The position numbers and the translations under genes were made by a program. Below are positions 10,801 through 58,317 of a stretch of 64,000 nt of DNA, piece by piece. The notes under the pieces were generated by a model. It saw only the letters and a program-made list of their open reading frames with translations. It was not told the DNA's origin and did not search any database. Source of the DNA: a virus. The DNA lies in the IMG/VR virus record IMGVR_UViG_3300032287_003731, positions 32,954 to 96,953 of that record, one strand, 5' to 3'. How positions within the stretch are numbered: the stretch's first letter is position 1; each line of letters starts with the position of its first letter.

Positions 10801-13112
10801 CATGGATTTGTTTTTATATATAATATACCTCCGGAAGTTCCTGAGCTTTGGTCAGATTGAATACTTGCTAATGCTTGGTTATTGTTACCTCCGTAATTGG
10901 TAGTTCCTACAGATATTTCGGAAGTTGTTGATCCGCCAGCATGTAGTATTGTTTGAGGGGCTGTAGTCCCAATACCTACGTTTCCTGCTGAAGATATAAC
11001 AGCTCTAACATTTTGATTACTTCCATCAACATCTGCAGTAACAAAAGATATCCCGTTATTTGTTACCCCCGCTACTCCAGATCTAATAATAGCATGACCA
11101 CCTTCGCTGTTTACTATACTAATCTGTGAAGTAGATGTTGATGCTGCACCTAATACTGTAAATTTAGAATATGGTGAAGTAGTTCCTATACCTACATTAG
11201 TACCTCCTACCGACAATACACTGTTATTGACAGTTAAACTACCTGTTACTCCTACCGATCCGGTAAATTGATGAGTATTACTTAACGTACTTCCAAATCG
11301 GGTAGAACCAGTTATGAAACTAACAGAAGATGTTACGGTCTGTACTACTAAGGTTTGAGCTGTGATGGTGCCGGTAACAGTAAGTGAACCGGTAATGATT
11401 GCGTTGCCATTTACGTCGAGTTTGGCGTTGGGAGTGGTTGTGCCGATACCTACATTACCGTTATAATCAATGTATAATCTAGAAGCTAAAGTATTTCCAG
11501 TAGATCCAGTAGCAAGTTGTATATTTAAAGAACTACCTCTCGTTGTATTAACCGAATCATCTCTAATCTGGTGTATAATTTTTCCTAAAGCTCTTTGAGT
11601 ACTATCGTTATACGTGGATCCTCTAAATACAATAGATTGTCCAAACCCATCAAATTCTGTTTGAGCTGTATTTTCAGACTCTATAACTAATACGTCTAAT
11701 GGAGTAGTTCTATCTGCCGTAGTAGTTCCAGCTAATCCTTTATATACATGCAATGAGGCAGTTGGAGAAGTAGTTCCTATACCTAGATTACCGCTACTCT
11801 GATACATAACACTACTGCTTAAGCTTGTAGCAGTATTCCAAAGAGGAATGTAACTAGCACCTCCTCCTAATACATTAGAAGCAGTACTAGCAAATGAAGC
11901 AGTTCCGAGCAATGATCCTGTTATACTACCTGCTGCTATTGATCCAGATAGTACTACTTCACCTGTAAATCTTGCAGAGCCGGATACGTCTAGGTTATAT
12001 AGAGGCAGTGGTTGATTAATGCCTACTCTTCCGTTTCCTACAGACCCTGAAAAGGGATTTCCTACTATACTTGAGTAAGAGCCTGTACCAAATATAAACC
12101 CTCCTATGTTAATACTGTTTTGTCTACCATCTTCAAGAGTAATGTTCGTACCTATGATGATGTTATTAGATTTTACTCCAAAAGATCCTCCCTGTACGTT
12201 ATATCCTGCTCTATATCCTAAAAACGTAGAGTAAGAAGCACTAGCTGCATACCACCCTGCGTAGCTTCCTATAAAATTAGAATTGTCTGCGTAAAAAGCT
12301 GCTTGTCCGGCTTCATACCCTATAAAATTAGAAGCACTGGCTTGGTTAGCCTGGTTTCCAGCTCTCAGACCTAAAAAGTTAGAGTTTTGAGCGTTTGATG
12401 CGGAATACCCGGCACTTCTTCCTAGAAAATTTGAACCGCTGGCATTTATTGCTTGGTAGCCTGCACTTTCGCCTAAAAAATTCGAATGTAGAGCGTTAGT
12501 GGAGTTACGTCCAGACTCTGCTCCTAAAAAATTCGAGTACGAAGCATTTGCAGCATCTCTACCTGCATTTTGTCCGAGGAAATTGGAGTAAGAGGCTCCA
12601 GGAGAAGTGTCCCCTGCGCTTCTCCCAAAAAAATTAGAGTAACTTGCGTTTGTAGAAAGGTATCCTGCAAATCTACCTAGGAAATTAGAGTATGTAGCGT
12701 TGGGGGCATTAAATCCGCTGTTCTGCCCTATGAACGTAGAAAAGGCTGCATTTGAGGAAGAGTATCCCGCGTTTGCTCCTAGAAAGTTGGAGTTGTTCGC
12801 AGAAGTGGCTTGAAATCCGGCTTGAAATCCTACGAAGTTTGAGTATGCTGCTGCTGTTGATCCGCTTCCAGCACTGCTACCTACTAACACTGAGAAGGTA
12901 GTTGAAAAATCTCCTACGTTTGTAGGAGTGTATACGGTAGATCCTGAAAGTGCTACAGGATACGAAGAGCTGATAGCATTCACCGTGTTGCTAGACCAAG
13001 AAGCGGTTCCGAACAGCGATGCTGTTACACCTTGGGTGACATTAAGTGAACCTGTAATTATTGAATTATTAAGGGCAATTATGCCGTTCCTTGCGACAAA
13101 TTCGTTTGGCAT
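7851..13112 (-). CDS. Long mosaic tail fibre (1753 aa) with GNVGIGTTxP modules and SNFLG..AG repeats
   Basis: About ten or more GNVGIG-type repeats; N-terminal ~15-aa beta-solenoid-like repeats; Gly/Ser/Thr rich. Confidence 0.85.
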   Translation of the reverse strand: MPNEFVARNGIIALNNSIITGSLNVTQGVTASLFGTASWSSNTVNAISSSYPVALSGSTVYTPTNVGDFSTTFSVLVGSSAGSGSTAAAYSNFVGFQAGFQATSANNSNFLGANAGYSSSNAAFSTFIGQNSGFNAPNATYSNFLGRFAGYLSTNASYSNFFGRSAGDTSPGASYSNFLGQNAGRDAANASYSNFLGAESGRNSTNALHSNFLGESAGYQAINASGSNFLGRSAGYSASNAQNSNFLGLRAGNQANQASASNFIGYEAGQAAFYADNSNFIGSYAGWYAASASYSTFLGYRAGYNVQGGSFGVKSNNIIIGTNITLEDGRQNSINIGGFIFGTGSYSSIVGNPFSGSVGNGRVGINQPLPLYNLDVSGSARFTGEVVLSGSIAAGSITGSLLGTASFASTASNVLGGGASYIPLWNTATSLSSSVMYQSSGNLGIGTTSPTASLHVYKGLAGTTTADRTTPLDVLVIESENTAQTEFDGFGQSIVFRGSTYNDSTQRALGKIIHQIRDDSVNTTRGSSLNIQLATGSTGNTLASRLYIDYNGNVGIGTTTPNAKLDVNGNAIITGSLTVTGTITAQTLVVQTVTSSVSFITGSTRFGSTLSNTHQFTGSVGVTGSLTVNNSVLSVGGTNVGIGTTSPYSKFTVLGAASTSTSQISIVNSEGGHAIIRSGVAGVTNNGISFVTADVDGSNQNVRAVISSAGNVGIGTTAPQTILHAGGSTTSEISVGTTNYGGNNNQALASIQSDQSSGTSGGILYIKTNPWNNSSGLGLYSPITRMTINELGNVGIGLTSPTARLHVTASTGGVLEVDGAGTAGANALYVSASGNVGLGINSPGAKLEIAYTTNPTTATPHIILSTGGTVKQAAITAESFAISGLVFSTGDGTLTDRMTILRTNGNVGIGTTSPDKKLRVTAGDIKISNNYKYIIGDTADADGITITSDGATNNMLIAQNNNAYIKVVTSGASGDIRFFPNAVEQVIFKASGNVGIGTTAPDSNLQVGSISTSGNRTIKITDSGYGLLLSGGGGPTSNYISSIGTTIPLYFLAGNSNDANYIFSSTGNVGVGLTNPTTKLHVSASTGGVLEVDGAGTAGANALYVSASGNVGVGTVSPANKLDINNANRTTLTSTGGGVNLNYNTSTIGEFATIGFSWESSNDRASRYGMGFTGTNFASGQGDLFLYTNGSRRLNITWDGNVGINTTTPTNTLDVNGTLNVRSNYAYFGGDANTAVYAGSFSNEGRIGVGGRSTIPTAALTFFTAEGTNNIERMRITSAGDVGIGTTTPSDKLGVVVDINAAAGINISNQNTGSSARTRLALETQGGNWYLDGVRTAGEFAITRGSTEVLRISGAGNVGIGTTSPNAKLDVSGSAIVSGSFTVSPSNAVELQVTSTGTKIGNIITDAHTITGSLGISGSAVVIGSLAIGTSSLGSTENTIVVGPPPAGGTGEGGQILLQAPGGSYTSASMIDNYQNRFRILRGTNASSDAEYFNLSLHSGQLGFSKYTGSGAFPGTAVANLAVDSSGNVITVATGGGGGSVTINNNTDNYLITATGTANTLNGEANLQFDGSTLTVTGSLTVITGSSIEFQVTNTGVRIGNIISDIHTITGSLNISGSVTGSLFGTASYATQALSASWAPGGGGGSAPTAVTFNRVTGSYTFALTDAGKTVEVSGSTNVSHSLTIPASSSVDFADGTYIDVILYGTGSILFATGSGVTIRSANSWNRIGTRYGAATLINISGNEWYLIGNINA
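9781..9863. repeat. ~83-bp direct repeat within fibre gene (second copy 10606..10688)
   Basis: Near-identical DNA (one mismatch seen) encoding ASTGGVLEVDGAGTAGANALYVSASGNV twice. Confidence 0.85.
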
Positions 13113-13162
13113 TATACTGGTTTCCTAGTTCACTTTCCCTAGGAGGGGGTTTATAATAAATA

Positions 13163-13345
13163 TTATACAAATAAAGCAGCTGAGACACGGTAGAGTCTAC
13201 CTGTTGGGTCTGCTGCTTGAAGTTCATCTGCTTTAGCTTGTGCTTCTGCTTCGTTATCGTATTCGTAAATGGGATCGTCTGGGTTTAGTTTGAGGACCCA
13301 TATTTGTGGATTGCCTGGAATAAATTCCATTTCTACTTTAAACAT
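13163..13345 (-). CDS. Hypothetical 60-aa protein
   Basis: ORF between two fibre genes with an A-rich start. Confidence 0.6.
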   Translation of the reverse strand: MFKVEMEFIPGNPQIWVLKLNPDDPIYEYDNEAEAQAKADELQAADPTGRLYRVSAALFV

Positions 13346-13357
13346 ATTATTTTATTT

Positions 13358-16300
13358 TTACATGAATATTGCTAGTGATTTAATTTTCCATCCTGAAGTA
13401 TTGGTTTGTACATTAAACTGTACATCACTTCCTGCAATAGAAACTGAAGAAGTTACAACTGCAGTATTACCTATATCTACAGTGGAATTATCGTAATACT
13501 GTACTGATGTACCATTCCAAGCTCCTACTACTTCACCTGCTCTTATATTACTACCACTTGATACTGTGTATTTGAAGAAAGCAGATGTATATGAACCTGT
13601 TGCTTGAGTAAATAGATTATTTGATCCTACTACTGATGATGCTACTGTAGCATAATCAGTGAGTGTAGAATCTATTGTGAGTTGATTTGCAACTGTGAAG
13701 TTGTTTGAGTATGATGATGTAGCTGCGAATGATGCGCTTGTTGCAAATGAAGCAGACACTGCATTTTGTGCTTGAGACGCTGATGTAGCAAACGAAGCAC
13801 TAACAGCATTTAATATATAACTTGCAGTAGTAGCAAATGAGGATGATACAGCATTTAAAACATATGAAGCACTAACTGCATTTAACACATAAGATGCTGT
13901 ATTAGCAAATGAAGCACTAATTGCGTTTAGTACATACGAAGCAGTTACAGCTTGAGACGCTGATATAGCAAACGAAGCACTAACTGCATTTTGTACAAAC
14001 GATGCTGTTAATGCATTAGATGCAGTTATTGCATTACTTGCCCATGATGCCGTCCCAAACAATGACCCTGTTATTCCAGCTCCAGTTACATTTAATGATC
14101 CAGTTATGCTTACACTACCAGTGAACTGGTGCGTGTTACTGAGTAATGTTCCAAAGCGAGTTGATCCTGTTACAAAGTCAATTGACGATGTTATGGTTTG
14201 TACTACTAAGGTTTGCGCTGTAAGTGTACCTGCTACGGTGAAATTATCAGCATATGATGCTGTAATTGCTCTTGTAGCGAACGAAGCACTGACTGCGTTT
14301 AGTATGTAGGATGCTGTTTGAGCGTTGGATGCTGATAGAGTATATGAAGCGCTCACTGCGTTAAGTATGTACGATGCTGTTACTGCATTTTGTGCTTGAG
14401 ATGCGCTTAACGCATAGCTAGCACTAACAGCATTTAAAATATATGATGCTGTACTAGCGAATGAAGCAGATACTGCATTCAATACATAACTTGCTGTTAC
14501 TGCATTTTGAGCTTGAGAAGCAGATAGACTATAAGAAGAAGATACTGCATTTAGTACGTAACTTGCTGTAACTGCATTCGCAGCTTGAGAAGCAGATAGA
14601 GCGTAGGACGCAGTAGTAGCAAAAGAAGAACTTACTGCATTTAATATATAGCTGGCTGTAGTAGCGTTTGAAGCAGACAAAGCATAAGAAGAAGAAACCG
14701 CATTTAATATGTAACTAGCTGTAACAGCATTACTTGCCCAGCTAGCAGTGCCTAAAAGAGATCCTGTAATATTAGGAGATACTAAAGACCCTGTTACAGT
14801 TAATCCGCTCTCGTACCTTCCGGAGCCAGACACATCTAAACTAAATAAAGGAAATGGCTGATTAATACCTATTCTACCATTTGCAGACCCAGAAAAGGCT
14901 ATATTAGATACAGTAGAGTAAGACCCTGTTCCAAAAAGTATTCCTCCTATATTAATCGCATCTTTTCTACCAGTATTAACAGTTATGTTTGTACCAATAA
15001 TAATATTATTGCTACCTATAAGATTTCCAATAGTATTAGCTCCTACGTTTTCTCCAATTAAAATAGAGTTATTTGCATTGGTTATTTGAAATCCCGATTG
15101 CCTTCCTATGCATACGCTTCCATTAGAAAAATTAGCAGCAGAACCAGCAGCTTGCCCTAAAAATACAGAACCGCTTGAAGCAAAAGAATCTCCTCCTGCA
15201 CCACTTCCTATGAATACGGCACTACTTGCAGATATTGCTCCTGTAGAAACTCCTATAAATACAGAATTTCCTACATTTGATTTATTACTAGCAGCAAAGG
15301 ATCCTATGGCAATTAAGTAAGAAGAGTTCGTTGTTCTCCATCCTGAGCGATACCCTAAAAGAATGCTGTTATCTGAATCAGATGAGCCACTTCCTGCCTC
15401 TCTTCCTAATATTACAGAATCTGTAGTACTAAAATTCCCTACATTTGTAACTGAGTATATAGTAGTCCCATTGACAGCAATAGGATAAGAAGAACTTATA
15501 GCATTTATTGCTGCAGAAGCAGATACTGCTCTTGAAGAGCTTACAGCAAAAGAAGAGGATAATGCATAGGAAGCGCTAACCGCATTCAGTATGTAACTAG
15601 CCGTTACTGCATTTTGTGCTTGAGAAGAAGATAGACTATAAGAAGAAGATACTGCATTTAATACATAACTAGCTGTAGTAGCAAACGAAGCACTTACTGC
15701 ATTTATTATGTAGCTTGCTGTTACAGCATTTTGTGCTTGAGATGCTGAAGTAGCTAATGAAGCACTAACTGCGTTTAGCACATACGAAGCAGTTGTTGCA
15801 TTTTGCGCTTGTGATGCACTAAGGGCATATGATGAACTAATAGCATTCAATATGTAAGATGCTGTAACGGCATTCTGCGCTTGAGAAGCAGATACAGCAT
15901 ATGAAGCACTTAAAATACTATTTTTACCATAAGGTCCATCAACGTTAGACGAACTAACATATGATGCTGTTTCTGCTGTAGCAGTAGCTACAGTGATATT
16001 GAATGTGCTACTATCACCTTTGGTAAATGTTATTGTTGAACCGGCAATAGATGCGGTAATTATACCTCGAAATGGTAGTGATGAAGTAGAAGCAAATGAA
16101 GCGCTTACTGCATTAAGTACATAGCTTGCTGTTTGTGCTTGGGAGGCACTTAAAGCATTAAGTACGTACGATGCCGTAGAAGCGAATGATGCAGAAGTAG
16201 CTGTTGTTGCTGTTGCTGCATTTCCACTAATAGAAGCACTAATAAATGATTTATTTTCCCATTTAGCAGCAGTTGTATCATAAACTAATGCTTGACCACT

Positions 16301-32676: not shown

Positions 32677-34317
32677 TTAAAGAGTATTTAAACCAGCAAC
32701 ATACACCTTACCATAATAATCAGGTCTAATCATCTTCTTAGCGTAACGAGTCATCAAACCTTTACGTGGAGTGAAGGTATTAGGATCGTAAAGAAGTGGA
32801 GTCATGATTAAAGGCACATATGGAGCGAATACAGCACCGCACTCAAGGAACTGAGCACCTTTGTAACCCATGAGGATTACATTCTCAGTCATGTATGGGT
32901 TCTTGTAAACCTTGTAACGGCTATTAAGTGAACCAACTTTCTGAATACCGAAGTTGAATTCCATCTTTTCGCCATCACCGTCAGAAGCAAATCCAGGAAT
33001 AGATTCGAGGATTGTAGCTACGGTTGGTGAAGTTACGAGGAAGTTAGCGCCACCGCGGAGAGTTAACTGATGGATTGTGTTAGAAACTTTCTGGAGTTTA
33101 GTACCGAGGGTTTGGAACCAACCACCTTGGGTATTGTAGAAACCTAAGTTGCTATTAGTAACACCAGATGTACCTACAGCTTGGTTGTTAACTGCTGACC
33201 AATATTCAGTTGTGAAAGCGTTTTGAATTAACATATCAAGGATTTCGAGGTCGATTTCCATTGAAATGTACTGTGATAAAATGCCAGTTAATTCAGCTTC
33301 AGCATCTACGCTATGGTAAGCGTTAAGATCCTGAGCGAATTCTGGAGTCCATTGTGCTTTTAACTTACGAGTTTTAGCAACAATAGCTTCAGATTTCAAC
33401 TGAACGTTAATCTCTGGGATAGAAATTGTAGTATTGCTTAAAGCATTGGGATAACCACCATTACCATTAGCAGTACCCGCACCACCACCAACTGATTGGT
33501 CTTCAAAATCACCGCGATCAGCAGGATCTGGAGCTACAGAGAAGAATAATGTAGTACTAGGCATAGCACCACCGGTCACAGCAGGAACAACAGAACCAGT
33601 CACAATGAAGGAAGCTGTGTTGTTAGATACAGTAGTAAATTGCTGTAAAATATCAGTAGCAGTAATAGAACCAGAAGTAAATACAAATGATCTAACAGCA
33701 TTCTGATCAGCAGGAGTTGGAAGGGGAACTAATACTTTTTTCCAACCAGTAGCAGCAGAAGCTGAATAGTTAGAATCCAAGTTAAAGTCAGCCCATGTGG
33801 TTGAACCGGTTAAAGCAGCAACAGAAGCTGAGAACTGGTTGATTGAGTAACCAAACTTACCAGCACCATAGAGTGACTGAGAAGCAATATCGGTTACATT
33901 TGTGGTTGCGTTAGCACCATAAAGTGAACCACCGTTAGTGAATGGCTTAACACCAGTGCCGTATTTGAAATCAAGATAGAATACGAGACCTGAAGGTAAG
34001 TTCATTGGCTGTACGCTAACGAATTCTTTAGCAGCGATTTCACCGAATACGCGGCGAACTAATGGTAAAGCTACACCAGCCCAGTTTTCTGAGTTGTAAC
34101 CACCACCAGACATTGAGGTAGTACCGCCAGTAGCTGAAGCTTCGGTGATTAATTGCTTGGCTTGGTTCTCGAGGAGAATAGCCATTGTGTTTTTGTCTTG
34201 AGTGTTACCGATACCTTCTAAAAGACCGGATTTAGCCCACTTACCAGACAAACGTTGTGCATCTTCCATTATAACTTTATATTGGTTAGATGACTCGAGT
34301 AATTGTTGTACGTTCAT
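32677..34317 (-). CDS. Major capsid protein (T4 gp23-like)
   Basis: KWAKSGLLEG, LVRR, VSVQPM..PSGLVFYL, AKTRKLKA.WT.E.AQDL, FAPYVPL, PRKGLMTRY. Confidence 0.97.
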   Translation of the reverse strand: MNVQQLLESSNQYKVIMEDAQRLSGKWAKSGLLEGIGNTQDKNTMAILLENQAKQLITEASATGGTTSMSGGGYNSENWAGVALPLVRRVFGEIAAKEFVSVQPMNLPSGLVFYLDFKYGTGVKPFTNGGSLYGANATTNVTDIASQSLYGAGKFGYSINQFSASVAALTGSTTWADFNLDSNYSASAATGWKKVLVPLPTPADQNAVRSFVFTSGSITATDILQQFTTVSNNTASFIVTGSVVPAVTGGAMPSTTLFFSVAPDPADRGDFEDQSVGGGAGTANGNGGYPNALSNTTISIPEINVQLKSEAIVAKTRKLKAQWTPEFAQDLNAYHSVDAEAELTGILSQYISMEIDLEILDMLIQNAFTTEYWSAVNNQAVGTSGVTNSNLGFYNTQGGWFQTLGTKLQKVSNTIHQLTLRGGANFLVTSPTVATILESIPGFASDGDGEKMEFNFGIQKVGSLNSRYKVYKNPYMTENVILMGYKGAQFLECGAVFAPYVPLIMTPLLYDPNTFTPRKGLMTRYAKKMIRPDYYGKVYVAGLNTL

Positions 34318-34348: not shown

Positions 34349-35425
34349 TTAGTGTTTTTTAATACCAGCAAGCATTTGCCATCTTGACATTGTTTCGTCT
34401 ACTTCGACGATTGGTTTTTTAGCAATACCTGCTGCTTTAGAAGCAAAGCCCATAGATTCTTTAATTGAAGACTTAGCGGATTTTACAATAGCAACGTCCA
34501 TAGTTTCATAAATCATCTTAGCTTCTTTAATAGTAGCTGCTTTGTCGAATTGAGCAATTACTTTAAGTTTTTGTGATTCGGTTAAGTTTTTGGCTTTGAA
34601 AATCTTATTTACATAGAGTAATTTAGCGTTAAGAAGATTAACTTCGTTAAGTTCTGAGCGAAGAGTGTGGATAGTAGCAATAGCTTCATCTAACTCTTTT
34701 TTCATTTTATCATCTTCTTCTTTAGCTTTTTTCATTTTTTTCTTAGCTTCGTACATTCCGCCTTCTTCGTATTCTGTTTCTTCAGAATAGTCTTCGCCTA
34801 AAGCGTCAAGTTCAGCTAATAATTCTTCTAAATCAAGATCTTCTTCCATTTCTTCTCCTTCATCAGATACATCAACAGACATTTCATCACCAGCTTCCAT
34901 TTCACCGCCGCCCATGTCTTCCATGCCGCCGTCTTCCATTTCGCTAGAAATAATGTCTTTGATAATCATTTTTAATTCTTCTACTGAAAGATCAGCTACA
35001 GTTTCAGATTCGGTAGATTCAGATTCTTCTTCTTTACCTTCTTCTTCTTCTTCTTTAGCTTCTTCCATTTTTTCTTTTTCTTCTTCTTTTTTAGCTTCTT
35101 CAAGTTCAGCTAAAATTTCAGATAAATCGAAGTCTTCTTCTAACTCATCACCACCTTCTTCAAGAGCAGCACCAGTTGCACGATATCTGTCTTGAATTTT
35201 ATCACTAGTTTCAGAAGGATAGAAGCCTTCTTTCATTTTTTCGTCGTCCTTGTCTTTTGCTTCTTCTAAATCTTCACCTTCCATTTCTTGCAATTTAGCA
35301 GCAAGCATAGATTGAAGTCTAGGGGCAAGAGCTTCTTCAAGAGCGACTTTTGCGTTGGCTAAAGCAGTTTCACGAATAGCTTTAGCGTCAGCAATTGCTT
35401 CTTTGAACAAATCTTGGTTTGTCAT
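34349..35425 (-). CDS. Prohead core/scaffold protein
   Basis: Very acidic, many [LIM]xE sites, between protease and capsid genes; ends MSRWQMLAGIKKH. Confidence 0.85.
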   Translation of the reverse strand: MTNQDLFKEAIADAKAIRETALANAKVALEEALAPRLQSMLAAKLQEMEGEDLEEAKDKDDEKMKEGFYPSETSDKIQDRYRATGAALEEGGDELEEDFDLSEILAELEEAKKEEEKEKMEEAKEEEEEGKEEESESTESETVADLSVEELKMIIKDIISSEMEDGGMEDMGGGEMEAGDEMSVDVSDEGEEMEEDLDLEELLAELDALGEDYSEETEYEEGGMYEAKKKMKKAKEEDDKMKKELDEAIATIHTLRSELNEVNLLNAKLLYVNKIFKAKNLTESQKLKVIAQFDKAATIKEAKMIYETMDVAIVKSAKSSIKESMGFASKAAGIAKKPIVEVDETMSRWQMLAGIKKH

Positions 35426-35572: not shown

Positions 35573-36178
35573 TTAACATAAAGGACAAACTCCAGTATGT
35601 TGACAAATAATTTCTGTTATTAAACTATTTACTTTACTATAATCTTTAATAGAAGCATATTGCTTTGATTCAGCTAATTTCATATAAGCCTGCGGAGTAC
35701 TAGGTACTGATACTAAATCCCAACATAATAATTCAAAATCATCTTGTACTTCAACTGTTTCACCAAGTTGTTTAACACTACCCATACCACGTGATGAAAT
35801 TCCAAGTGGAATACCTGATAGTACAAGTGCTTTAGCAATATTGCCAGCAGGTGTAGGTAATAATTGTAATTTACCCATTAAGTCATTTCCTTTCCACCAT
35901 ACTTCTGTAATAAGATGAGAAGTATTGGCTAAGTTTACAACAGAGGCTTCAGGATGATCGAGTTCTCCTAAAGCAGTGCGTGTTTTTATTGGTCCTTCAG
36001 CGTATTTTTTTACTTCTCTTTCAAGTATTTCGCGAGGATATACACGACCATTGCCATTTTTTTGCTCAGCTTCTTGTAATTTACCAACTAAAGTGACAGT
36101 ACCATTATTTGCTTTACCTTCAACTAAAGTAAGTTTAGCGTGTTGGAAAGGAGTATGGTCTATAAGTAATGATTTCAT
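35573..36178 (-). CDS. Prohead protease (T4 gp21-like)
   Basis: KNGNGRVYP, ALGELDHP, TPAG, GISSRGMGS, WDLVSVPS. Confidence 0.95.
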   Translation of the reverse strand: MKSLLIDHTPFQHAKLTLVEGKANNGTVTLVGKLQEAEQKNGNGRVYPREILEREVKKYAEGPIKTRTALGELDHPEASVVNLANTSHLITEVWWKGNDLMGKLQLLPTPAGNIAKALVLSGIPLGISSRGMGSVKQLGETVEVQDDFELLCWDLVSVPSTPQAYMKLAESKQYASIKDYSKVNSLITEIICQHTGVCPLC

Positions 36179-37570: not shown

Positions 37571-38104
37571 TCACGAAAAAGGTAATTCAGAAGCCGGAAT
37601 AGAAGTTGATTTTATTTTCATTTCTTTTTTAATCATATTTAAAATATAATCAACAGATCCTAATCCTAATTCTTGTAAATTTTCAATAGCTTTTATGGTT
37701 GTATTAATTTCTTTATTTATATATTCTTCTCTTTCAATATCCATAGAAGTATCAGCTTCGTTAATTGGTTTATCAACGAGTATTTCAAATATAGCTTGAG
37801 CTAATTTACCGTAATTACCTTTATCTAAGCTATCTTTCATATAACTGCTGATTCTAGTAGTTGTTCCATTACTAAGTTTCACATTATTATCTTTTCTAAA
37901 AGAAAACCTGTATGTAGCCTCTATTATTTTCATTATATCATCTTCTTGACTAGTACTTATTTCTTGCCCGATTTCTTTTAAATATAATTTTTTTACTTGA
38001 TCTACAATACTATTATATATACTTTCATTTTCATTCATATTATTCTCCTTCAAAATACCAGCTAATTGCTGCATTCTATAAATTTCATTAAGTTGTTTTT
38101 TCAT
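37571..38104 (-). CDS. RMQQLAGI-leader protein (putative capsid cargo)
   Basis: MKKQLNEIYRMQQLAGILKENNMNE followed by unique sequence. Confidence 0.75.
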   Translation of the reverse strand: MKKQLNEIYRMQQLAGILKENNMNENESIYNSIVDQVKKLYLKEIGQEISTSQEDDIMKIIEATYRFSFRKDNNVKLSNGTTTRISSYMKDSLDKGNYGKLAQAIFEILVDKPINEADTSMDIEREEYINKEINTTIKAIENLQELGLGSVDYILNMIKKEMKIKSTSIPASELPFS

Positions 38105-51179: not shown

Positions 51180-51418
51180 GATCTATTTCCCATTTTTTTA
51201 GAAGCAGCTGTTTTATGAAAAGGAACTCCATTTTCTTCTTTTTTAGCCATTTCCCACGCTTCTTTAGTGTATTTAGTACCAAATAAATAATACTCTGCTA
51301 AGCGTTTGTTACCTTGTGGGATAAGAGCAGGTCCATCAAAATTATGAAGTTTATATACTCCATTAGCTTCATTAACATATGCTATAGTTCCATCTGCTTT
51401 TACTAGTTTTTTTACCAT
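51176..51418 (-). CDS. Small protein with LHNFDGPA repeat-type motif
   Basis: KLHNFDGPALIP...EYYLFG. Confidence 0.7.
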   Translation of the reverse strand: MVKKLVKADGTIAYVNEANGVYKLHNFDGPALIPQGNKRLAEYYLFGTKYTKEAWEMAKKEENGVPFHKTAASKKMGNRS

Positions 51419-51452
51419 ATTTTTATTTTAAAATTAATAAAATTATTTTGCC
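51417..51452. repeat. 36-bp direct repeat (second copy 52047..52082) flanking a cargo cassette
   Basis: ATATTTTTATTTTAAAA[T/G]TAATAAAATTATTTTGCC, one mismatch. Confidence 0.85.
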
Positions 51453-51542: not shown

Positions 51543-52025
51543 TTAAGCTCCTAATGAATCATAAAAAGCATCCCATAATTCCTCTTCTTCATATTCTATT
51601 TCAATATCTTTTCCACTTTTAGAATATACATATCCTATTACTTCAAATTCAGCATCACTGCATCCTTCTGGATCAAGAATTAAACCTGGAATATTTTTTT
51701 CTAATTCTAATTTAGGGTCAGGCATACTTAAAATCCATTTTTTATCATCTGGAAGATCAATAAAATTGGAATACCCTATAATTTCTTTTACTTTTTTTCC
51801 ATTTATTAATATAAAATCATCTGCTAGTCCTTTTTCACAATAAAAGAATTTATAATCTTTTTCATTTTGATAATAATTAGGAGTATATTTAACTACTAAA
51901 TCATCTTCAAAATTAAAATCTTCAATTTCTCCTTTATCATTAATAGAAACTTCATCTAATTGTGATTCTTTTAAAATACCAGCTAACTGCTGCATTCTAT
52001 GAATTTCGTTAAGTTGCTTTTTCAT
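51543..52025 (-). CDS. RMQQLAGI-leader protein (putative capsid cargo), acidic payload
   Basis: MKKQLNEIHRMQQLAGILKESQLDE. Confidence 0.75.
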   Translation of the reverse strand: MKKQLNEIHRMQQLAGILKESQLDEVSINDKGEIEDFNFEDDLVVKYTPNYYQNEKDYKFFYCEKGLADDFILINGKKVKEIIGYSNFIDLPDDKKWILSMPDPKLELEKNIPGLILDPEGCSDAEFEVIGYVYSKSGKDIEIEYEEEELWDAFYDSLGA

Positions 52026-52072
52026 TTTTTTTTATTATAATAATAAATATTTTTATTTTAAAAGTAATAAAA

Positions 52073-52846
52073 TTATTTTGCCAAAATGCTTTCAGCAACA
52101 TAAATACCATGCGCACCGCTAACGGTAATACCACGAGCTGAAAGTGCATCACCTACAAAGTGTACATATGGATATTCAGTTAATGATAAATCATCATAAT
52201 TAACTAACGGTTCCGGTGATAAGTATTTTACTTCAGGAATGTACATACCCCAATCATCACCAAATTCAAATACTTTATTCATTGATAATATAAAATCATG
52301 AATATAAGTAGCATATTCACCTAATACTTCATAAAACCTAACCAAATTATCTACAGGATAAGCAGATACAGTTGTTCCCTCGGATGTTAATCCAGGTTGA
52401 CGAGTTTTGTTTGGTGAATAATAAGTACCAGTTCCATTAATTTGTAGTTTTTGAACAATATCTCTACTCCAAGCAAATGGATCTTCAATACCTTTGATTT
52501 CCATTAATATACCAAAATTAGTCATTTGGTTTTCGAATTCTTTACCTTTTTTGGCGTGTCCGTTGTAGCTAACGTCTCCATAAGTTTCTTCCACTGCAAC
52601 GTAAGCTGCATTGTTGTTAGTACAAAAGCTACGGAGAGATACCTTATCGAATTTTTGATATAGTTTAAAATCATATGATATATCAATTAGTTTTTGAAAA
52701 TACTTTTGTGGGCTTTCAAATCTCACTCCAATCTGCACAGCGCGAGCTTCAGTTGGTAATTGTTTTTCTCTCACTATTTTTTGAGTTAAATCCATACCAG
52801 CTTTACCAGTACCATAAATTAAAGTATCAAATTTTATTTTTTTCAT
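52073..52846 (-). CDS. FAD-dependent oxidoreductase, C-terminal half
   Basis: GTGKAG, IGVRFE, RSFCTN, NGHA, TNFGIL, PEVKY, FVGDA..ARGI..SGAHG. Confidence 0.85.
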   Translation of the reverse strand: MKKIKFDTLIYGTGKAGMDLTQKIVREKQLPTEARAVQIGVRFESPQKYFQKLIDISYDFKLYQKFDKVSLRSFCTNNNAAYVAVEETYGDVSYNGHAKKGKEFENQMTNFGILMEIKGIEDPFAWSRDIVQKLQINGTGTYYSPNKTRQPGLTSEGTTVSAYPVDNLVRFYEVLGEYATYIHDFILSMNKVFEFGDDWGMYIPEVKYLSPEPLVNYDDLSLTEYPYVHFVGDALSARGITVSGAHGIYVAESILAK

Positions 52847-52847
52847 A

Positions 52848-53648
52848 TTAATTGTTTTTATATTTCCATTTATAACCTAATACAGATTTTCTTTTTCCTT
52901 GACAACATAAACATATTCCTCCATTGCTTTTTAATCCTGTTGTATCCTCAAATTCTTGAACAGAATCCCACTCTTTAATAAAATTATCTTCTAAATCATA
53001 TTGAAGGACAGGTTTTCTTCTTTTTTGAGAAACCATTTGATTTCTATATGTCCAATCTATATCTCGTTTTTTAAAAGTATCACTTTTCTTCTTTCTAGTC
53101 TCTTCAGAATCTTTTATACCTAATCTAACTTTTTTACCTATCATAGACTTACTTTTCTTCTCACTGCTTTCCTTACTCATCTTTTTGCCTTTATTAGGTG
53201 ATATATGACCTTTTAATCCTTCAGATATTTTTCTTTTAGATTCTTCAGAATGTTTCATTCCAGTAGTACCAGCTTTAACACCACATTCAGCTATATTAGC
53301 TAATATATAACCTTTATTTCGCAAATCTAATTCTATTTCTCTTTCTTTTAATAATGCTTCATTTTCACTTAATCCTTCAAATAATATTTTAGATTCAAAT
53401 ACACCATTATTTTTATTTACAATATTATGCCAGTATTGATTTCTACCATATTTTGATCTATCTCGTTTAGATATTCCTTTTCCAACATAAAACGGTTTAT
53501 TCATATCAGGTCGTATATGAATATAAACTATAAAGTTATTGTTTTGGTTTTTTTTCGTGATATTTTTGTTTGAGTTTTTCATCGATTTTTTCTTTATTAG
53601 ACCAATAATATTTCTTACTATATTCTCGTTGTTTGAGAATACGTTCAT
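52848..53648 (-). mobile_element. GIY-YIG-like homing endonuclease (NUMOD3/NUMOD1) splitting the oxidoreductase
   Basis: VYIHIRPD..PFYVGKG, HSEESKRKIS, VLQYDLE..FIKEW, GYKWKY; true start uncertain. Confidence 0.85.
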
Positions 53649-53679
53649 CTTCTGTTTGATATTTTTTAATACGTCCCAT
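53536..53679 (-). CDS. 47-aa basic ORF at the head of the endonuclease insert
   Basis: Hand-translated MGRIKKYQTEDERILKQREYSKKYYWSNKEKIDEKLKQKYHEKKPKQ; first ATG after ATATTTAT (53685-53692). Confidence 0.55.
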   Translation of the reverse strand: MGRIKKYQTEDERILKQREYSKKYYWSNKEKIDEKLKQKYHEKKPKQ

Positions 53680-53721
53680 CTATTATAAATATTATAGATC
53701 TAAGAAAAAATCTAAGAAAAA

Positions 53722-54243
53722 TCAATTATTCTTTAATATTATTTCTTTAGTTTCAAAATCAATATCTTCAACTTCAGTATTCCACATGAATCTAACACCT
53801 TTATCAACTAAATATTGATACCAACGTTTTCCTATTTCATGCAAGTAGTCTGTACCTATGTGGTATACGGGGAATAAGCGAAGTCCAAAATACGGCTTAA
53901 TAAAATCTGGTTCTGCTTGTGGGTTAGAGTACATTATTTTAGAAGGATCAGGATGGAAGCGTTTCCACATCTCAATTGATTGATTCATTAAATTATATGC
54001 TTTTTTTTCACCACAATACTTACTTAACTGACCTCCAATTGAAGTATGATAAGTAAGTTTACCATCTGAAAATCCTCCTGCTCCTGCAAAACCACACATT
54101 ACTTCTTCTGGTTTGCGAACATAAGGATCATTCCCTTTATCAATAATAGTAATTAATTCTCCAGGATAATTATTATCTATTAATTTTAATGCAGCACTAA
54201 TACCAGCTACACCACTTCCAACAATTACAATTTTATTCTTCAT
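53722..54243 (-). CDS. FAD-dependent oxidoreductase, N-terminal half
   Basis: IVIVGSGVAG Rossmann motif, GFAGAGGFSDGKL, HIGTD. Confidence 0.88.
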   Translation of the reverse strand: MKNKIVIVGSGVAGISAALKLIDNNYPGELITIIDKGNDPYVRKPEEVMCGFAGAGGFSDGKLTYHTSIGGQLSKYCGEKKAYNLMNQSIEMWKRFHPDPSKIMYSNPQAEPDFIKPYFGLRLFPVYHIGTDYLHEIGKRWYQYLVDKGVRFMWNTEVEDIDFETKEIILKNN

Positions 54244-54499: not shown

Positions 54500-54519
54500 G
54501 TTTTATTATTTTTATAAAA

Positions 54520-55065
54520 TTAATAATTTATTTTTGCCATTTCAAATTTTGAAGGTCTAATATTCCAATTATCAATATATCTTATATTTTTTTCTTTTTT
54601 ACACCATATCGCTATAGTAGAAAGACTTATATTTAATTTATTAGCTGCTTCAGAACAAGATTCATATATCTCTCCGGTTTTTATATTTTGTATTCGTTTT
54701 CCTAGTTTTCTTTTAAATTTATTTTCCATCCAAAGTTTTTTCATTTTTTCACTTTTAATACGTTTAGCTTCTTCAGGATATATATAAGGTTTATGATAAC
54801 CTCCTCCTATGCAATTCATACCATTTAAAACACAGTTATACTGTTTTATCCAGTATTGTTCTTTTTTATTTAGTTCTTCTTCTTTACATTCTTCTATTAT
54901 TTCAAAAGAATGATAAAACCATCCATATTTTTTTAAAGATTCATATAATTTAGTTTGTTCTTTACAATAATGCTTTTTATATGTTTCAAATCTTTTTTCT
55001 ATATTAGTTGATTGACCAATATATATTTCTTTTTCAGGGTTAGTTATTTTATAAATACCTATCAT
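54520..55065 (-). mobile_element. Free-standing GIY-YIG homing endonuclease
   Basis: MIGIYKITNP...IYIGQSTNIEKR, KKYG, E.YWI; C-terminal NUMOD1-like HTH. Confidence 0.9.
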
Positions 55066-55089: not shown

Positions 55090-55130
55090 AAAAAAAAATG
55101 GAGTAGTGGCTGTTTTAGGGCCACTACTCC
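55090..55130 (-). terminator. Strong terminator downstream of the cassette array
   Basis: GGAGTAGTGGC/GCCACTACTCC 11-bp stem followed by a T9 run on the minus strand. Confidence 0.85.
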
Positions 55131-55192
55131 GATTTATATAAATCCTCTAATGAGGCGAACAGGCAATGAATCTGTTTTATATATTTATATTA

Positions 55193-55534
55193 TTATAAAT
55201 AATTATTATAATATATAACTTTACCTGCTATATTTGCTGATTTTACTTTATTATATGGATCATTTTCAGGAAAAAGTTCTAACATATGTTCTTTACTAAA
55301 AGAAACATCTATTCCTGAGTTATCATCAGTACCTGCTGTAGCTACTAATGGATCACCCATAATTTCAAATTCAGAACCAGGATCACCTATTTTTTGAATA
55401 AATTCATCCATATTAGCGTTCAAAAATGAAGCAATATTTTTATCTTCATTCATTAATGATTCTTGATATTCACTTTCAGTGATTAATCCAGCGATAAGCT
55501 GCATTCTTTTAATTTCGTTAATTTGTTTTTTCAT
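55193..55534 (-). CDS. RMQLIAGL-leader protein (cassette 3)
   Basis: First 90 nt identical to those of 55604..56245. Confidence 0.8.
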   Translation of the reverse strand: MKKQINEIKRMQLIAGLITESEYQESLMNEDKNIASFLNANMDEFIQKIGDPGSEFEIMGDPLVATAGTDDNSGIDVSFSKEHMLELFPENDPYNKVKSANIAGKVIYYNNYL

Positions 55535-55603
55535 TTTTTTTTTTTGTTATATGTTAATAAATATCAGAACAGGCAATAAATCTGTTTTATATGTATTATT
55601 ATT

Positions 55604-56245
55604 TTATACTAATTCAATTCCCATTTCTTTTAACTTTTTTATAAAACTCATAATTTTTTGATTATCTACATCATCAAAGTCAGCTTCAAAAGCATCTTTT
55701 CCAGTTAAATCAGTTAAAATACCCATCCACTCTTCAGTTCCTGATTCTATTTCTTTGCCTCCCATTGATTCAAAATAATCATCATCTACTCCATTTTGAT
55801 TTAAAATATTAAGAACTTCTTCTTCAGACATTTGCTTATTTACTGATGAAATATTGTTAGGGGTTACTCTATTGGATTTTCTCCATGTAATTTTCACATC
55901 ACGGCCATATTTTATTTTAGCTGCTTTTGTTACAGCTTGTTCAAAACGAACACCTAATGCAAGATATGCGTTTTTATTTTCCCAATAGTTTTTAGGATCT
56001 CTTGGTCCTGGTATATAAATACTCTTCATAAAATCAGCTTCATTATCAGTTTCTAATTCTATTTCAAAAGTATTAGAATCAGCATCGTAAATACCATAGT
56101 CGTCTACATTATTGGGATTTATAAGAGTTTTTCTTAAAGTTTTATCAATTTCCCATTCATTCATTAATGATTCTTGATATTCACTTTCAGTGATTAATCC
56201 AGCGATAAGCTGCATTCTTTTAATTTCGTTAATTTGTTTTTTCAT
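55604..56245 (-). CDS. RMQLIAGL-leader protein (cassette 2)
   Basis: MKKQINEIKRMQLIAGLITESEYQESLMNE followed by unique payload. Confidence 0.8.
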   Translation of the reverse strand: MKKQINEIKRMQLIAGLITESEYQESLMNEWEIDKTLRKTLINPNNVDDYGIYDADSNTFEIELETDNEADFMKSIYIPGPRDPKNYWENKNAYLALGVRFEQAVTKAAKIKYGRDVKITWRKSNRVTPNNISSVNKQMSEEEVLNILNQNGVDDDYFESMGGKEIESGTEEWMGILTDLTGKDAFEADFDDVDNQKIMSFIKKLKEMGIELV

Positions 56246-56307
56246 TTTTTTTGTTATATATTAAATAAATATCTGAACAGGCAATAAATCTGTTTTATAT
56301 GTTTATA

Positions 56308-56640
56308 TTATTTTTGAATACGATCTTGTATTTCTTTTAATACTGATTTATCATGTATTGATATTGCAGGAGCACCATATCCTGAATCTGGCGTTAGTAT
56401 ACAAACGTAATTACTTCCTTCAAATACCACAGCATTTATTGTATTAGTTTCTATATCTGTTAATGTTCCTAATACTGTGCAATCATCTTTAAGTCCGGCG
56501 CTAAGATCTCCATCTGCTGGTGAATAGGCTCCTAAATTTTGTCCTGGTTGAAAGATAGTTACTTCTTCGTTTAGTTGGTTTTCTTTTAAAATACCAGCTA
56601 ATTGCTGTATTCTTTTAATTTCGTTAATTTGCTCTTTCAT
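56308..56640 (-). CDS. RIQQLAGI-leader protein (cassette 1)
   Basis: MKEQINEIKRIQQLAGILKENQLNE. Confidence 0.8.
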   Translation of the reverse strand: MKEQINEIKRIQQLAGILKENQLNEEVTIFQPGQNLGAYSPADGDLSAGLKDDCTVLGTLTDIETNTINAVVFEGSNYVCILTPDSGYGAPAISIHDKSVLKEIQDRIQK

Positions 56641-56649
56641 TTTTTTTTG

Positions 56650-57129
56650 TTATATATTAATAAATATCCAAGATGGCGTATTTCCTAATTTTTTCCAACT
56701 TAACCCTTTAACAGCTATTTTATCTTTAATATAAAACTGCTTATAAGCAATAATAGTATCACTATTCTTATACTCATCAGGCATACATTGTGGTGGGGGA
56801 GTAAACCCATTATCGGGTATATTAGGTTCATTATCACGGCACCATTCAAGTACATCTTGTGTTTTATGGTGTTTACCATAACGTTTTGTAAATTCACTAC
56901 AAATTTCAAGACCATGTTGTACAAGCCAACGATAGTGTTGAATTGATTGGCGAGTCCAAATTGTTGATGGATGATTAAAATGAGCACGCTTATATGGTGC
57001 TTGTGAACCTACTGCCCAATGTGTTGTACAGCACATTTGAGCTGATTCGATTTGCATTTTACGAATATGATCATCGGCTAATTGTTGTGCTGCGATGATT
57101 GGGTCTTGATTGATATAAAATATATTCAT
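56650..57129 (-). CDS. Pyrimidine-dimer DNA glycosylase (DenV-like) family protein
   Basis: MNIFY, D.HI.KM.IESAQM, YK..H.NHP..IW.R, EF.KRYGK.HK, QCMPDEYK. Confidence 0.8.
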   Translation of the reverse strand: MNIFYINQDPIIAAQQLADDHIRKMQIESAQMCCTTHWAVGSQAPYKRAHFNHPSTIWTRQSIQHYRWLVQHGLEICSEFTKRYGKHHKTQDVLEWCRDNEPNIPDNGFTPPPQCMPDEYKNSDTIIAYKQFYIKDKIAVKGLSWKKLGNTPSWIFINI

Positions 57130-57164
57130 ACTTTAAAAGTATAAATTTTATTTTGCCCTTTATA

Positions 57165-57518
57165 TTATTTTACGTTATATTCTTTGTTACCTACTTTTAG
57201 ATTAACTACAGTATCAAGATTTATCATTCTATAAGCTCGCTTTTGAATATCAAAAACAGGAATTAATCCTTTAGGTTCAGGATTATATGGTAGTTCACCT
57301 CCTTTAAGATAAGCTTTAACTCCTAAACGAGCATTCATAACTCGAGTAGTACCATCTGTTCTTTTAATAAAAGTTACTGTAAAAAATTTACCTTTAGTAT
57401 CTTTAATTACTTTTTTAGCTTGTTCATGGTTAATAGTTTCTACAGAAGAAGAATTTACATTCTGTTCTACAAGAATTCCTGCTAATTTTTGCCAACGTTT
57501 TGCTTCTTGTATTAACAT
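57165..57518 (-). CDS. SH3/WYL-like phage protein with RWQKLAGI leader
   Basis: FFTVTFIKRTDG..R.MNARLGV...VFDIQK.AYR.INL core preceded by MLIQEAKRWQKLAGILVE. Confidence 0.7.
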   Translation of the reverse strand: MLIQEAKRWQKLAGILVEQNVNSSSVETINHEQAKKVIKDTKGKFFTVTFIKRTDGTTRVMNARLGVKAYLKGGELPYNPEPKGLIPVFDIQKRAYRMINLDTVVNLKVGNKEYNVK

Positions 57519-57522
57519 TTAT

Positions 57523-58281
57523 TTATGTATTTTTTATAGTTTCAAGCATATTATTATATAACGTTTTTGATATAGTGTGATAAGTATAACATTGATTACA
57601 TTGTAATTGGATTCTTGGGTTTCCTAAAGCTGTATAACGTGTTTTGGTGTATTTCATGCTGTTTGAAGTACAATTAGGGCAAGAATATTTTTCCTCTCCG
57701 GCTATTACACCATGATGAGTTTTAGCAGGAATATAAGTTACTATTCTATTGTATACTTTTTCTAAAATAACTACATCATTTTTGCAATATTCTATCATAT
57801 GATGTAATGCTTCTTTATCTTTATTTAGTATTACTTTTTCCCATAAATCATATCCTGTATGTATTTTTTGTCCTACATTTAAAAATTTAGCTATGTAATC
57901 TAATTTGTTACTATTAAATCTAAATTTAGACCTAGCAAAATTTAAAGTATCTAATGTAGTGTACACAGGAAATACTGGGATTTTATGATATAGGCAACGA
58001 GTTCTAATCCATGGTAGATCAAATTTATCACCGTTATGTCCTATTAATTCATCTGCTTCATTAGCTACTTCAATAAATTGTTCTAGTAATTTTTTATCAT
58101 CTTGATTTTCATCCCAATGTAACGAATATACTTTATTTTCATTTATCCATTTATAACAAATACAAATAATTGCTCTTTCTTTTATAATACTTTCAGGAGA
58201 AATATTTTTTTTATAACCAGATGACCAAAAAAAGCCCACATTGGGGCTAGTTTCTATGTCAAAAAATAACTTTTTTACCAT
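57523..58281 (-). CDS. RNase H-like 3'-5' exonuclease with C-terminal Zn ribbon
   Basis: FFDIETSP, GHNGDKFDLP, DTL, SNKLD, YCKNDV; CPNC...CNQC. Confidence 0.88.
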   Translation of the reverse strand: MVKKLFFDIETSPNVGFFWSSGYKKNISPESIIKERAIICICYKWINENKVYSLHWDENQDDKKLLEQFIEVANEADELIGHNGDKFDLPWIRTRCLYHKIPVFPVYTTLDTLNFARSKFRFNSNKLDYIAKFLNVGQKIHTGYDLWEKVILNKDKEALHHMIEYCKNDVVILEKVYNRIVTYIPAKTHHGVIAGEEKYSCPNCTSNSMKYTKTRYTALGNPRIQLQCNQCYTYHTISKTLYNNMLETIKNT

Positions 58282-58317
58282 TTTTTATTTTTAATATATT
58301 AAAGAAGTTTTGCCAAA

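Follow-up and report, generated by a model that had tools for sequence, protein, structure and literature searches.

A 64,000-nt stretch of viral DNA (hereafter the window; bases 32954-96953 of the 96,953-bp IMG/VR viral record IMGVR_UViG_3300032287_003731) carries on its minus strand, between 55157 and 56670, a tandem array of three genes that begin with a common leader peptide, continue into unrelated payloads and are each followed by a 26-nt hairpin repeat. We consider it probable that this array is a hypervariable "cargo bay" of self-contained late genes, whose leader corresponds to the tail of the phage's scaffold protein, whose products are probably loaded into the prohead, and which has grown by ordinary recombination. 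The repeat is the first hairpin of an element situated between the last gene of a late unit and the intrinsic terminator of that unit, and is not a site at which cassettes recombine. The original prediction, made from the DNA letters of the window, had likened the array to an integron in which the hairpin delimits exchangeable cassettes.

Organization of the array

As originally described, the repeat is present in three exact copies on the minus strand (56275-56300, 55567-55592 and 55157-55182), apart from one T/C difference; no further copy was found when up to 3 mismatches were allowed, and dinucleotide-preserving shuffles (n = 100) gave 0 matches. The inverted repeat within it, a 5-bp stem enclosing a 9-nt loop, was likewise found only at these three sites, and the 26-nt repeat can be extended to 39 nt. 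The units run in the order promoter-like octamer, A-run, leader, unrelated payload, stop codon and hairpin, with the following octamer beginning 1 nt past the repeat, which bears out the proposed architecture and its tight junctions. The description of three hairpin-bounded units holds for this anatomy but not at the two ends of the array: unit 1 has no hairpin upstream, its octamer overlapping the final codons of the upstream anchor gene, and the third repeat copy leads into a small hairpin and a strong terminator (55099-55131) with no further unit.

Read along the minus strand, the array begins within the anchor gene (56650-57129), a glycosylase-like gene (weak Pyr_excise match; PHROG 624) whose last codons hold the octamer of cassette 1 (56660-56667, 27 nt upstream of the ATG). 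Cassette 1 (56308-56640) comprises the leader and a 110-aa orphan payload. Cassette 2 (55604-56245), whose octamer lies at 56265-56272, combines a 30-aa leader with a two-domain payload (213 aa), and cassette 3 (octamer 55557-55564; gene 55193-55534) joins an identical 30-aa leader to a 113-aa orphan payload. The first two repeat copies consist of hairpin 1 only, whereas the third belongs to the full element (55090-55190), made up of a 5' flank, hairpin 1 (55157-55182), hairpin 2 (55144-55155), the GC-rich intrinsic terminator and a T-run.

Units 2 and 3 have approximately 150 nt in common at 99% identity (56156-56302 versus 55445-55594), a block that comprises the hairpin, the octamer, the A-run and the first 30 codons. 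This block, together with internal promoter copies that derive from the local gene end, is what simple tandem gene duplication followed by paralogue divergence could leave behind. We rejected that explanation, which we hold to be very improbable, since the similarity ends abruptly at codon 30 and the payloads beyond it are unrelated: no similarity was detectable among the three window payloads (best BLASTP E = 2.3), their lengths are 110, 213 and 113 aa, and their relatives elsewhere differ. The concern raised at the outset, that the payloads might prove to be diverged paralogues, therefore does not apply. None of the cassettes matched a family in Pfam or PHROG. Payload 1 has only 3 relatives among 5.8 billion proteins, its IMG/VR matches being leader-only, and all 20 IMG/VR matches of payload 3 are confined to the leader region. 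The C-terminal ~80 aa of payload 2 recur alone behind the same leader in two related loci (L091 and L092), and an AlphaFold2 model of this payload, made without an alignment, was uninformative (pLDDT 43).

A conserved hairpin-terminator element

The anchor gene has 595 relatives in IMG/VR, and 80 loci were fetched for comparison (related loci are cited here by L numbers). Among relatives, the hairpin is the leading structure of a conserved element of about 85 nt that is normally single-copy. A conserved 5' flank is followed by hairpin 1, whose 9-nt loop is near-invariant, then by a small hairpin that varies, and finally by a GC-rich intrinsic terminator in which one arm is conserved. Hairpin 1 has a stem of 5-6 bp around the 9-nt loop, and across 30 sequences 150 of 150 stem cells were paired, with all five of the five pairs changed on both sides; 0 of 500 shuffles reached the observed score, and slid controls paired in no more than 52%. 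Hairpin 1 alone is thermodynamically weak (-2.6 kcal/mol, z = -0.3), so that its reality rests on the covariation across relatives; for the full element, by contrast, the predicted structure is strong (z = -5.35). Both wobble pairs read as G-U on the sense strand, and this favors a structure formed in sense-strand RNA or in single-stranded DNA. Searches of Rfam gave no family at gathering score and only sub-threshold noise at permissive thresholds. An outer helix around hairpins 1 and 2 was discarded, having been predicted in few sequences and not conserved, and roughly half of the relatives lack hairpin 2.

A covariance model found one copy in each of three 100%-complete relatives and one significant copy in a 93%-complete one. 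Across the fetched loci, 33 of the 80 had one copy per locus, and only this record had three copies, every one of them in the array. In about one third of loci the gene before the element is leader-tagged, and in the rest it is another gene; as the element also stands behind untagged genes, it is not leader-specific. The two internal copies of the window carry a T at the near-invariant loop position that is C in 27 of the 30 sequences; this is consistent with relaxed constraint, and these internal copies are probably scars.

The invariant six bases of the loop (loop 55163-55171) are the reverse complement of the start and second codons of the anchor gene (57124-57129). The same complementarity occurs in L021, L029 and L035, and in most relatives the anchor gene lies ~110 nt downstream of the element; this may represent a regulatory pairing or a coincidence.

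The promoter-like octamer

The coding strand of the record holds 41 copies of the octamer, 32 of them lying within 60 nt upstream of a start codon, compared with 7 occurrences of its reverse complement. It stands upstream of the sheath, tube, baseplate hub, tail fiber, adaptor, portal, terminase and scaffold genes and of several homing endonuclease genes, but neither the anchor gene nor the exonuclease gene has a copy immediately in front of it. We read it, on these statistics, as a virion-gene (late-type) promoter element. As each cassette carries its own copy 27-30 nt before the ATG, each looks like an autonomous late unit. Sigma-70-like sites showed no enrichment, with 45 observed and 47 expected. 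A sigma-70 promoter within the hairpin, suggested by a -35-like hexamer in the 3' arm, was dropped in view of that scan and of the better fit of the octamer to the spacing.

A second recurrent intergenic motif was noted at 51418-51452, 52048-52082, 54504-54538, 57123-57157 and 58271-58317, upstream of the anchor gene and other non-virion genes, with related sequence past the terminator in relatives. It may represent an early or host-type promoter class distinct from the octamer.

Variation of the locus among relatives

In the IMG/VR relatives, the number of leader-tagged genes in the interval between the anchor gene and an oxidoreductase gene is 0, 1, 2 or 3, and homing endonucleases or other genes also occur there. 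The flanking genes abut or overlap in L005, L014, L015, L018, L020, L025, L029, L035 and L039; one leader-tagged gene is present in L013, two in L001 and L024, a homing endonuclease in L011, L012, L016 and L021, and other genes in L002, L004, L007 and L010. In L001, L021, L029 and L035, leader-tagged genes are also found immediately ahead of the anchor gene. Among the informative relatives L091 is the closest, with flanking genes 94-96% identical to those of the window and the same downstream endonuclease, but it has two cassettes instead of three, one with a payload that has no counterpart in the window and the other consisting of the leader and the C-terminal domain of payload 2 only (96% nt identity). 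L091 has neither payload 1 nor payload 3 of the window. The comparison between the glycosylase-like gene and the oxidoreductase that the original prediction had called for thus shows that cassette number and identity vary, and the relatives do not all carry the same three genes in the same order. Because the relatives, L091 included, differ in cassette number and content, the proposal of an expandable payload slot is supported.

A separate leader-tagged cassette on the minus strand (51543-52025) is located between 36-nt direct repeats (51417-51452 and 52047-52082) of intergenic promoter-like sequence. L091 lacks this cassette and has one copy of the repeat (L091 4480-4545), so the two differ by a clean insertion/deletion. 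An exact-pattern scan of IMG/VR for the hairpin variant of the window returned 0 matches, a scan for the hairpin-promoter junction pattern returned one chance match, in a coding region of an unrelated phage, and a metagenome scan returned two chance matches only, in DNA of 55-56% GC. For the locus closest by anchor-gene identity (L023, 98%), the contig of 63 kb breaks off within the anchor gene, right beside the array (locus 10335), as would be expected of an assembler that meets a repeated or polymorphic array.

Array junctions and recombination

Part of the element has been duplicated in four arrays, those of the window, L091, L110 and L024, and no two of them share a breakpoint. The window breakpoint lies 1 nt past the stem. 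That of L091 is inside the loop and is joined to a 26-nt copy of the locus's own anchor-gene 3' end and promoter, that of L110 falls after hairpin 2 and yields a 45-nt direct repeat around one cassette, and that of L024 is at the 3' end of the loop, the internal copy retaining the lineage's own stem variant in decayed form. The internal promoter copies in the window and L091 match the local variant of the anchor-gene end, and other tandem arrays of leader genes (L001, L008, L030 and L036) have no internal hairpin. The junctions that created the arrays are non-homologous; their anatomy is observed directly, and from it we infer the recombination pathway. The two leader copies of the window are 100% identical over 90 coding nt, compared with 92-94% between genomes (120-nt promoter-plus-leader blocks), which indicates that a duplication or conversion took place once the window and L091 lineages had separated. 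The earlier idea of recombination between conserved flanks survives in part: leader and hairpin supply homology, but the array-creating junctions did not use it.

The absence of an integrase, noted originally for the window, was confirmed and extended. No tyrosine recombinase (PF00589, Phage_integrase) was found in the whole record or in five relatives that are 93-100% complete, with positive controls, and no serine recombinase (PF00239, Resolvase) was found in the record; a RecA/UvsX-like gene is present. These results bear upon the integron-like interpretation, in which the hairpin would be a short attC-type folded site and a site-specific recombinase would move promoterless cassettes. Tandem units that each end in the same covarying hairpin, G-U wobbles confined to one strand, as expected of a single-stranded folded site, and a cassette number that differs among relatives are all features that such a platform would display. 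Nevertheless, the interpretation is largely refuted, and we attach only the faintest likelihood to it: besides the missing recombinases, the hairpin is single-copy in complete relatives and also follows untagged genes, four arrays have four breakpoints, one of them within the loop, every cassette has its own promoter-like motif, and the four other tandem arrays of leader genes named above have no internal hairpin.

Strict shuffling of the PeSL (promoter/stem-loop) type would have repeated cassettes of hairpin plus octamer recombine homologously, make mini-circles and move ORFans, as documented in T4-type phages (PMC2839356, PMC4122927). The array does present a stem-loop and then a promoter-like motif between small orphan genes, and repeated regulatory sequence borders the indels that distinguish close relatives, both at the array and at 51543-52025. 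We regard this explanation in its strict form as unlikely, however, given that the element occurs in one copy per complete genome with no dispersed family, that the promoter motif is of the virion-gene type and not the sigma-70 early type (for which the scan showed no enrichment), that the internal stem-loop is probably too weak for transcription termination, and that the first junctions are non-homologous.

Cassette turnover might instead be driven by homing endonucleases, with GIY-YIG breaks near the element prompting repair from co-infecting relatives and thereby moving cassettes. A GIY-YIG/NUMOD1 homing endonuclease gene (54520-55065, minus strand) lies immediately past the terminator in the window, as it does in L091, homing genes occupy the same interval in the four loci listed above and lie beside the hairpin in L014/L020, and the conserved loop could be a recognition sequence. 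Yet the arrays of L110, L024 and L001 are duplicated or variable without an adjacent endonuclease gene, and such genes are scattered across this genome, which leaves this mechanism improbable in our estimation. The FAD-dependent oxidoreductase gene of the window (52073-54243) is itself split into two open reading frames by a NUMOD-type homing endonuclease gene (52848-53648); it is intact in L091 (444 aa) and many relatives, and is split at a similar place by different inserts in L001, L010 and L024.

The leader and the scaffold tail

The leader core begins six open reading frames of the record, namely the three cassettes, a WYL_2/Sm-like gene directly upstream of the anchor gene (57165-57518, kept in L001, L008 and L017), the repeat-flanked cassette at 51543-52025, and a gene within the head-morphogenesis module (37571-38104), all on the minus strand. 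The same core forms the final residues of the record's scaffold-like protein, and in the relatives' loci the leader starts 41 distinct open reading frames. It is 20-30 residues long and ends in one or two I/L/M-x-E motifs, with an I/L-x-E-type motif present after every leader examined in the record and in the relatives' loci. A leader profile matched 1,815 cluster representatives (50% identity clusters, E <= 0.001) among 1.84 billion proteins; in the best 150 of these 1,815 matches, the leader was N-terminal in 146 and was followed by [ILMV]-x-E within 8 residues in 149. A literature search with the leader motif strings gave no match. One 6,824-aa protein with 25 stretches matching the profile was set aside as a probable repeat artefact, the strict motif being absent from it. 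Several database proteins carry the leader twice, at the N-terminus and internally, the internal copy being preceded by a start-like Met-Lys-Lys; judging from this arrangement, they look like two adjacent cassettes fused in frame and separable by the protease site.

The scaffold-like gene (34349-35425, minus strand) lies between the genes for a gp21-type prohead protease (Peptidase_S77; 35573-36178, minus strand) and a Gp23-type major capsid protein (32677-34317, minus strand), the latter two assigned by profile match. Its product is acidic and scaffold-like, and the last ~12 residues are the leader core after an I-x-E site. The C-terminal motif is kept in five complete relatives, whose scaffolds are 49-69% identical overall, and in the cultured Flavobacterium phage vB_FspM_immuto, which carries the same leader and scaffold motifs, the leader being found on its gp083; in all of these the motif is preceded by an invariant I-x-E, and seven phages have it at the end of their scaffold protein. 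An hhalign comparison between 32 leaders and 6 scaffold tails gave 92.6% probability and E = 4.5e-7, and the leader is conserved at the protein level though the DNA has diverged. The capsid protein has I-T-E at residues 57-59, 22 residues before a conserved block that in T4 gp23 stands 28 residues after the maturation cut, a position equivalent to that cut. By sequence, the leader reproduces the very end of the scaffold protein made by the same phage. Since the leader corresponds to the scaffold C-terminus and ends in I/L-x-E, the payloads are probably capsid-loaded internal proteins, packed into the prohead, trimmed and delivered with the DNA, as in T4.

Alternatively, the leader may not be a capsid address; it could be a helix for oligomerization, a tag for regulation or degradation, or a signal at the level of translation, and the payloads would then act in the infected cell only. 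We see this as a minor but real possibility. Tagged genes occur among early-looking DNA-metabolism genes, the capsid role is deduced from sequence, and the model of payload 2 is of no help. On the other hand, the same motif ends the scaffold in seven phages, after a protease-type site, nearly every one of the best profile matches (149 of 150) has I/L/M-x-E after the leader, the cassettes use the virion-gene promoter motif, one tagged gene is in the head module, and conservation is at the level of protein across diverged DNA.

In immuto, the gene product gp067 (NC_055915; L096 15626-16867), encoded between the prohead protease and capsid genes, is annotated as a "DNA polymerase phi-like protein". 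As it is acidic, aligns in its N-terminal part with the scaffold-like protein of the window, and has the leader motif as its C-terminus, it is probably the scaffold.

Proposed course of array growth

In the account that we favor, each unit would be a self-contained late gene: a virion-type octamer and an A-rich start of translation precede a leader of 20-30 residues, to which an unrelated payload is joined. This payload would be loaded into the prohead, trimmed by a gp21-type head protease that cuts I/L/M-x-E at the end of the leader, and delivered with the DNA. A new cassette would be added beside the element by an exchange with homology at one junction only, supplied by the leader, the hairpin/terminator or the downstream gene; the other junction would be non-homologous and would copy part of the element. 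Between the direct repeats thus formed (hairpin, octamer and leader), the phage's general recombination system (RecA/UvsX-like gene) could afterwards carry out unequal crossing-over and gene conversion and also remove cassettes or exchange payloads.

Several observations weigh against this account. The conserved 9-nt loop implies a specific partner, possibly a recombination or nuclease factor. All four breakpoints lie within ~45 nt of the element, and this clustering may reflect the only tolerated non-coding space or a true hotspot. Most of the tagged genes have DNA-metabolism genes, not head genes, as neighbors, the leader and the T4 capsid targeting sequence show no similarity in sequence, and both the presence of the tagged proteins in virions and the cleavage of their leaders are conclusions from gene sequence. 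Finally, the record is 58% complete (CheckV), and a near-identical strain with another copy number was not found in the IMG/VR and metagenome scans.

The element might also be an active landing pad that repeatedly captures late-expressed, scaffold-tail-tagged cargo genes. Such an element could act as a fork-stalling hairpin, or as the target of a phage nuclease or of an RNA/DNA-binding protein that recognizes the invariant 9-nt loop. We consider this doubtful; if true, it would represent a recombinase-free functional analogue of the integron serving the injected-protein arsenal of a lytic phage lineage.

Genomic setting

The record is a fragment of an uncultured, distant T4-type myovirus with a GC content of 31% and every gene on the minus strand; its host probably belongs to the Flavobacteriia. 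The closest cultured phage is immuto (160 kb), whose capsid protein is 58% identical, and related contigs in IMG/VR reach 155-183 kb. The head module is of the T4 type, with family profile matches to Portal_T4 (4e-69), Peptidase_S77 (3e-33) and Gp23 (8e-79). Outside the window, at about 10900-15100 of the record, the N-termini of several open reading frames resemble by eye those of QueC-, QueD- and QueE-type enzymes, a hint that DNA may be modified through a 7-deazaguanine pathway.

Significance

Phage-injected proteins are front-line counter-defense weapons, and the acquisition of new ones is poorly documented beyond the T-even coliphages. The present work adds junction-level evidence, from four independent events in a lineage of distant T4-type phages of aquatic Bacteroidota, that cargo arrays grow by one-sided non-homologous recombination near a terminator-proximal element and are then shuffled homologously. 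The identity of a large uncatalogued leader family (the 1,815 clusters) with the scaffold tail suggests capsid targeting by scaffold mimicry, and the family flags hundreds of orphan payloads as candidate injected effectors. The element itself is a structured element supported by covariation and without an Rfam entry. An integron would have been the greater surprise, but that interpretation does not hold.

Comparison with known systems

In phage T4, the gp21 protease cuts after Glu in I/L-x-E motifs, and a capsid targeting sequence (CTS) of 10-20 residues loads unrelated internal proteins (IPs) into the prohead (PMC5694885, PMC3012670); the IP loci of T-even phages are polymorphic according to Repoila et al. 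(1994), as cited in PMC3012670. The T4 ipIII and ipII genes stand in tandem adjoining denV and have an identical 10-residue leader on unrelated bodies. Our array resembles this system (IPI, IPII, IPIII and Alt) in its T4-type prohead with a gp21-family protease, in the short conserved N-terminal leader that is attached to unrelated proteins and ends in I/L-x-E, in the tandem genes beside a denV-like gene (the T4 order being ipIII-ipII-denV), and in locus content that varies among related phages. It differs in its leader, which has an unrelated sequence and two to three times the length (20-30 versus 10 aa), is the scaffold's own C-terminus, where it is also used C-terminally, and belongs to a very large family; the host lineage is of the Bacteroidota type, and packaging is here a prediction from the genes. 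No homology to the T4 CTS or IP families was found, the ipII/ipIII leader being unrelated and the cassettes having no Pfam or PHROG match. At the level of sequence, the array has every feature of the T4 IP/CTS system except leader homology.

PeSL regulatory cassettes have been described in T4-type phages by Arbiol et al. (2010; PMC2839356) and Comeau et al. (2014; PMC4122927). The array shares with them a composite of stem-loop and promoter between small orphan genes, the lack of a dedicated recombinase, and indels bounded by a repeated motif (the window versus L091, L110 and L024, and the cassette within the 36-nt repeats). In contrast to about 50 dispersed PeSL copies, there is one conserved element per genome here; the motif is of the virion-gene type rather than a sigma-70 early promoter, the internal stem-loop is weak, a strong terminator being present only in the terminal full element, and the founding junctions are non-homologous. 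The array thus resembles PeSL shuffling in outcome and departs from it in two defining features, namely dispersed copies and a sigma-70 early promoter, and probably in a third, a strong stem-loop.

With integron arrays (IntI, attI, attC) the locus has in common tandem single-gene units in variable number, each with a small imperfect palindrome in which structure is kept over stem sequence. Unlike integrons, it has no integrase, a promoter-like motif for each cassette, variable breakpoints and a hairpin that is single-copy in relatives; the hairpin of 19 nt is, as was pointed out originally, far shorter than attC. None of the integron features tested, that is an adjacent IntI, a long attC in fixed position and promoterless cassettes, is found in the array. 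Phage morons (promoter-gene-terminator) are similarly autonomous units in intergenic space between conserved genes whose presence varies among relatives, whereas the units described here share a protein-level tag and a late-type motif and stack at one landing site. In encapsulin cargo-loading peptides and P22 scaffold-tail fusions, a short terminal peptide directs unrelated cargo into an HK97-fold shell. The likeness lies in a terminal peptide that copies a shell- or scaffold-binding segment; those cases are bacterial nanocompartments or engineered, whereas this would be a natural phage system with release by a protease. Taken together, these comparisons place the array among known kinds, as a variant form that joins T4 capsid-targeting leaders to PeSL-style modular shuffling.

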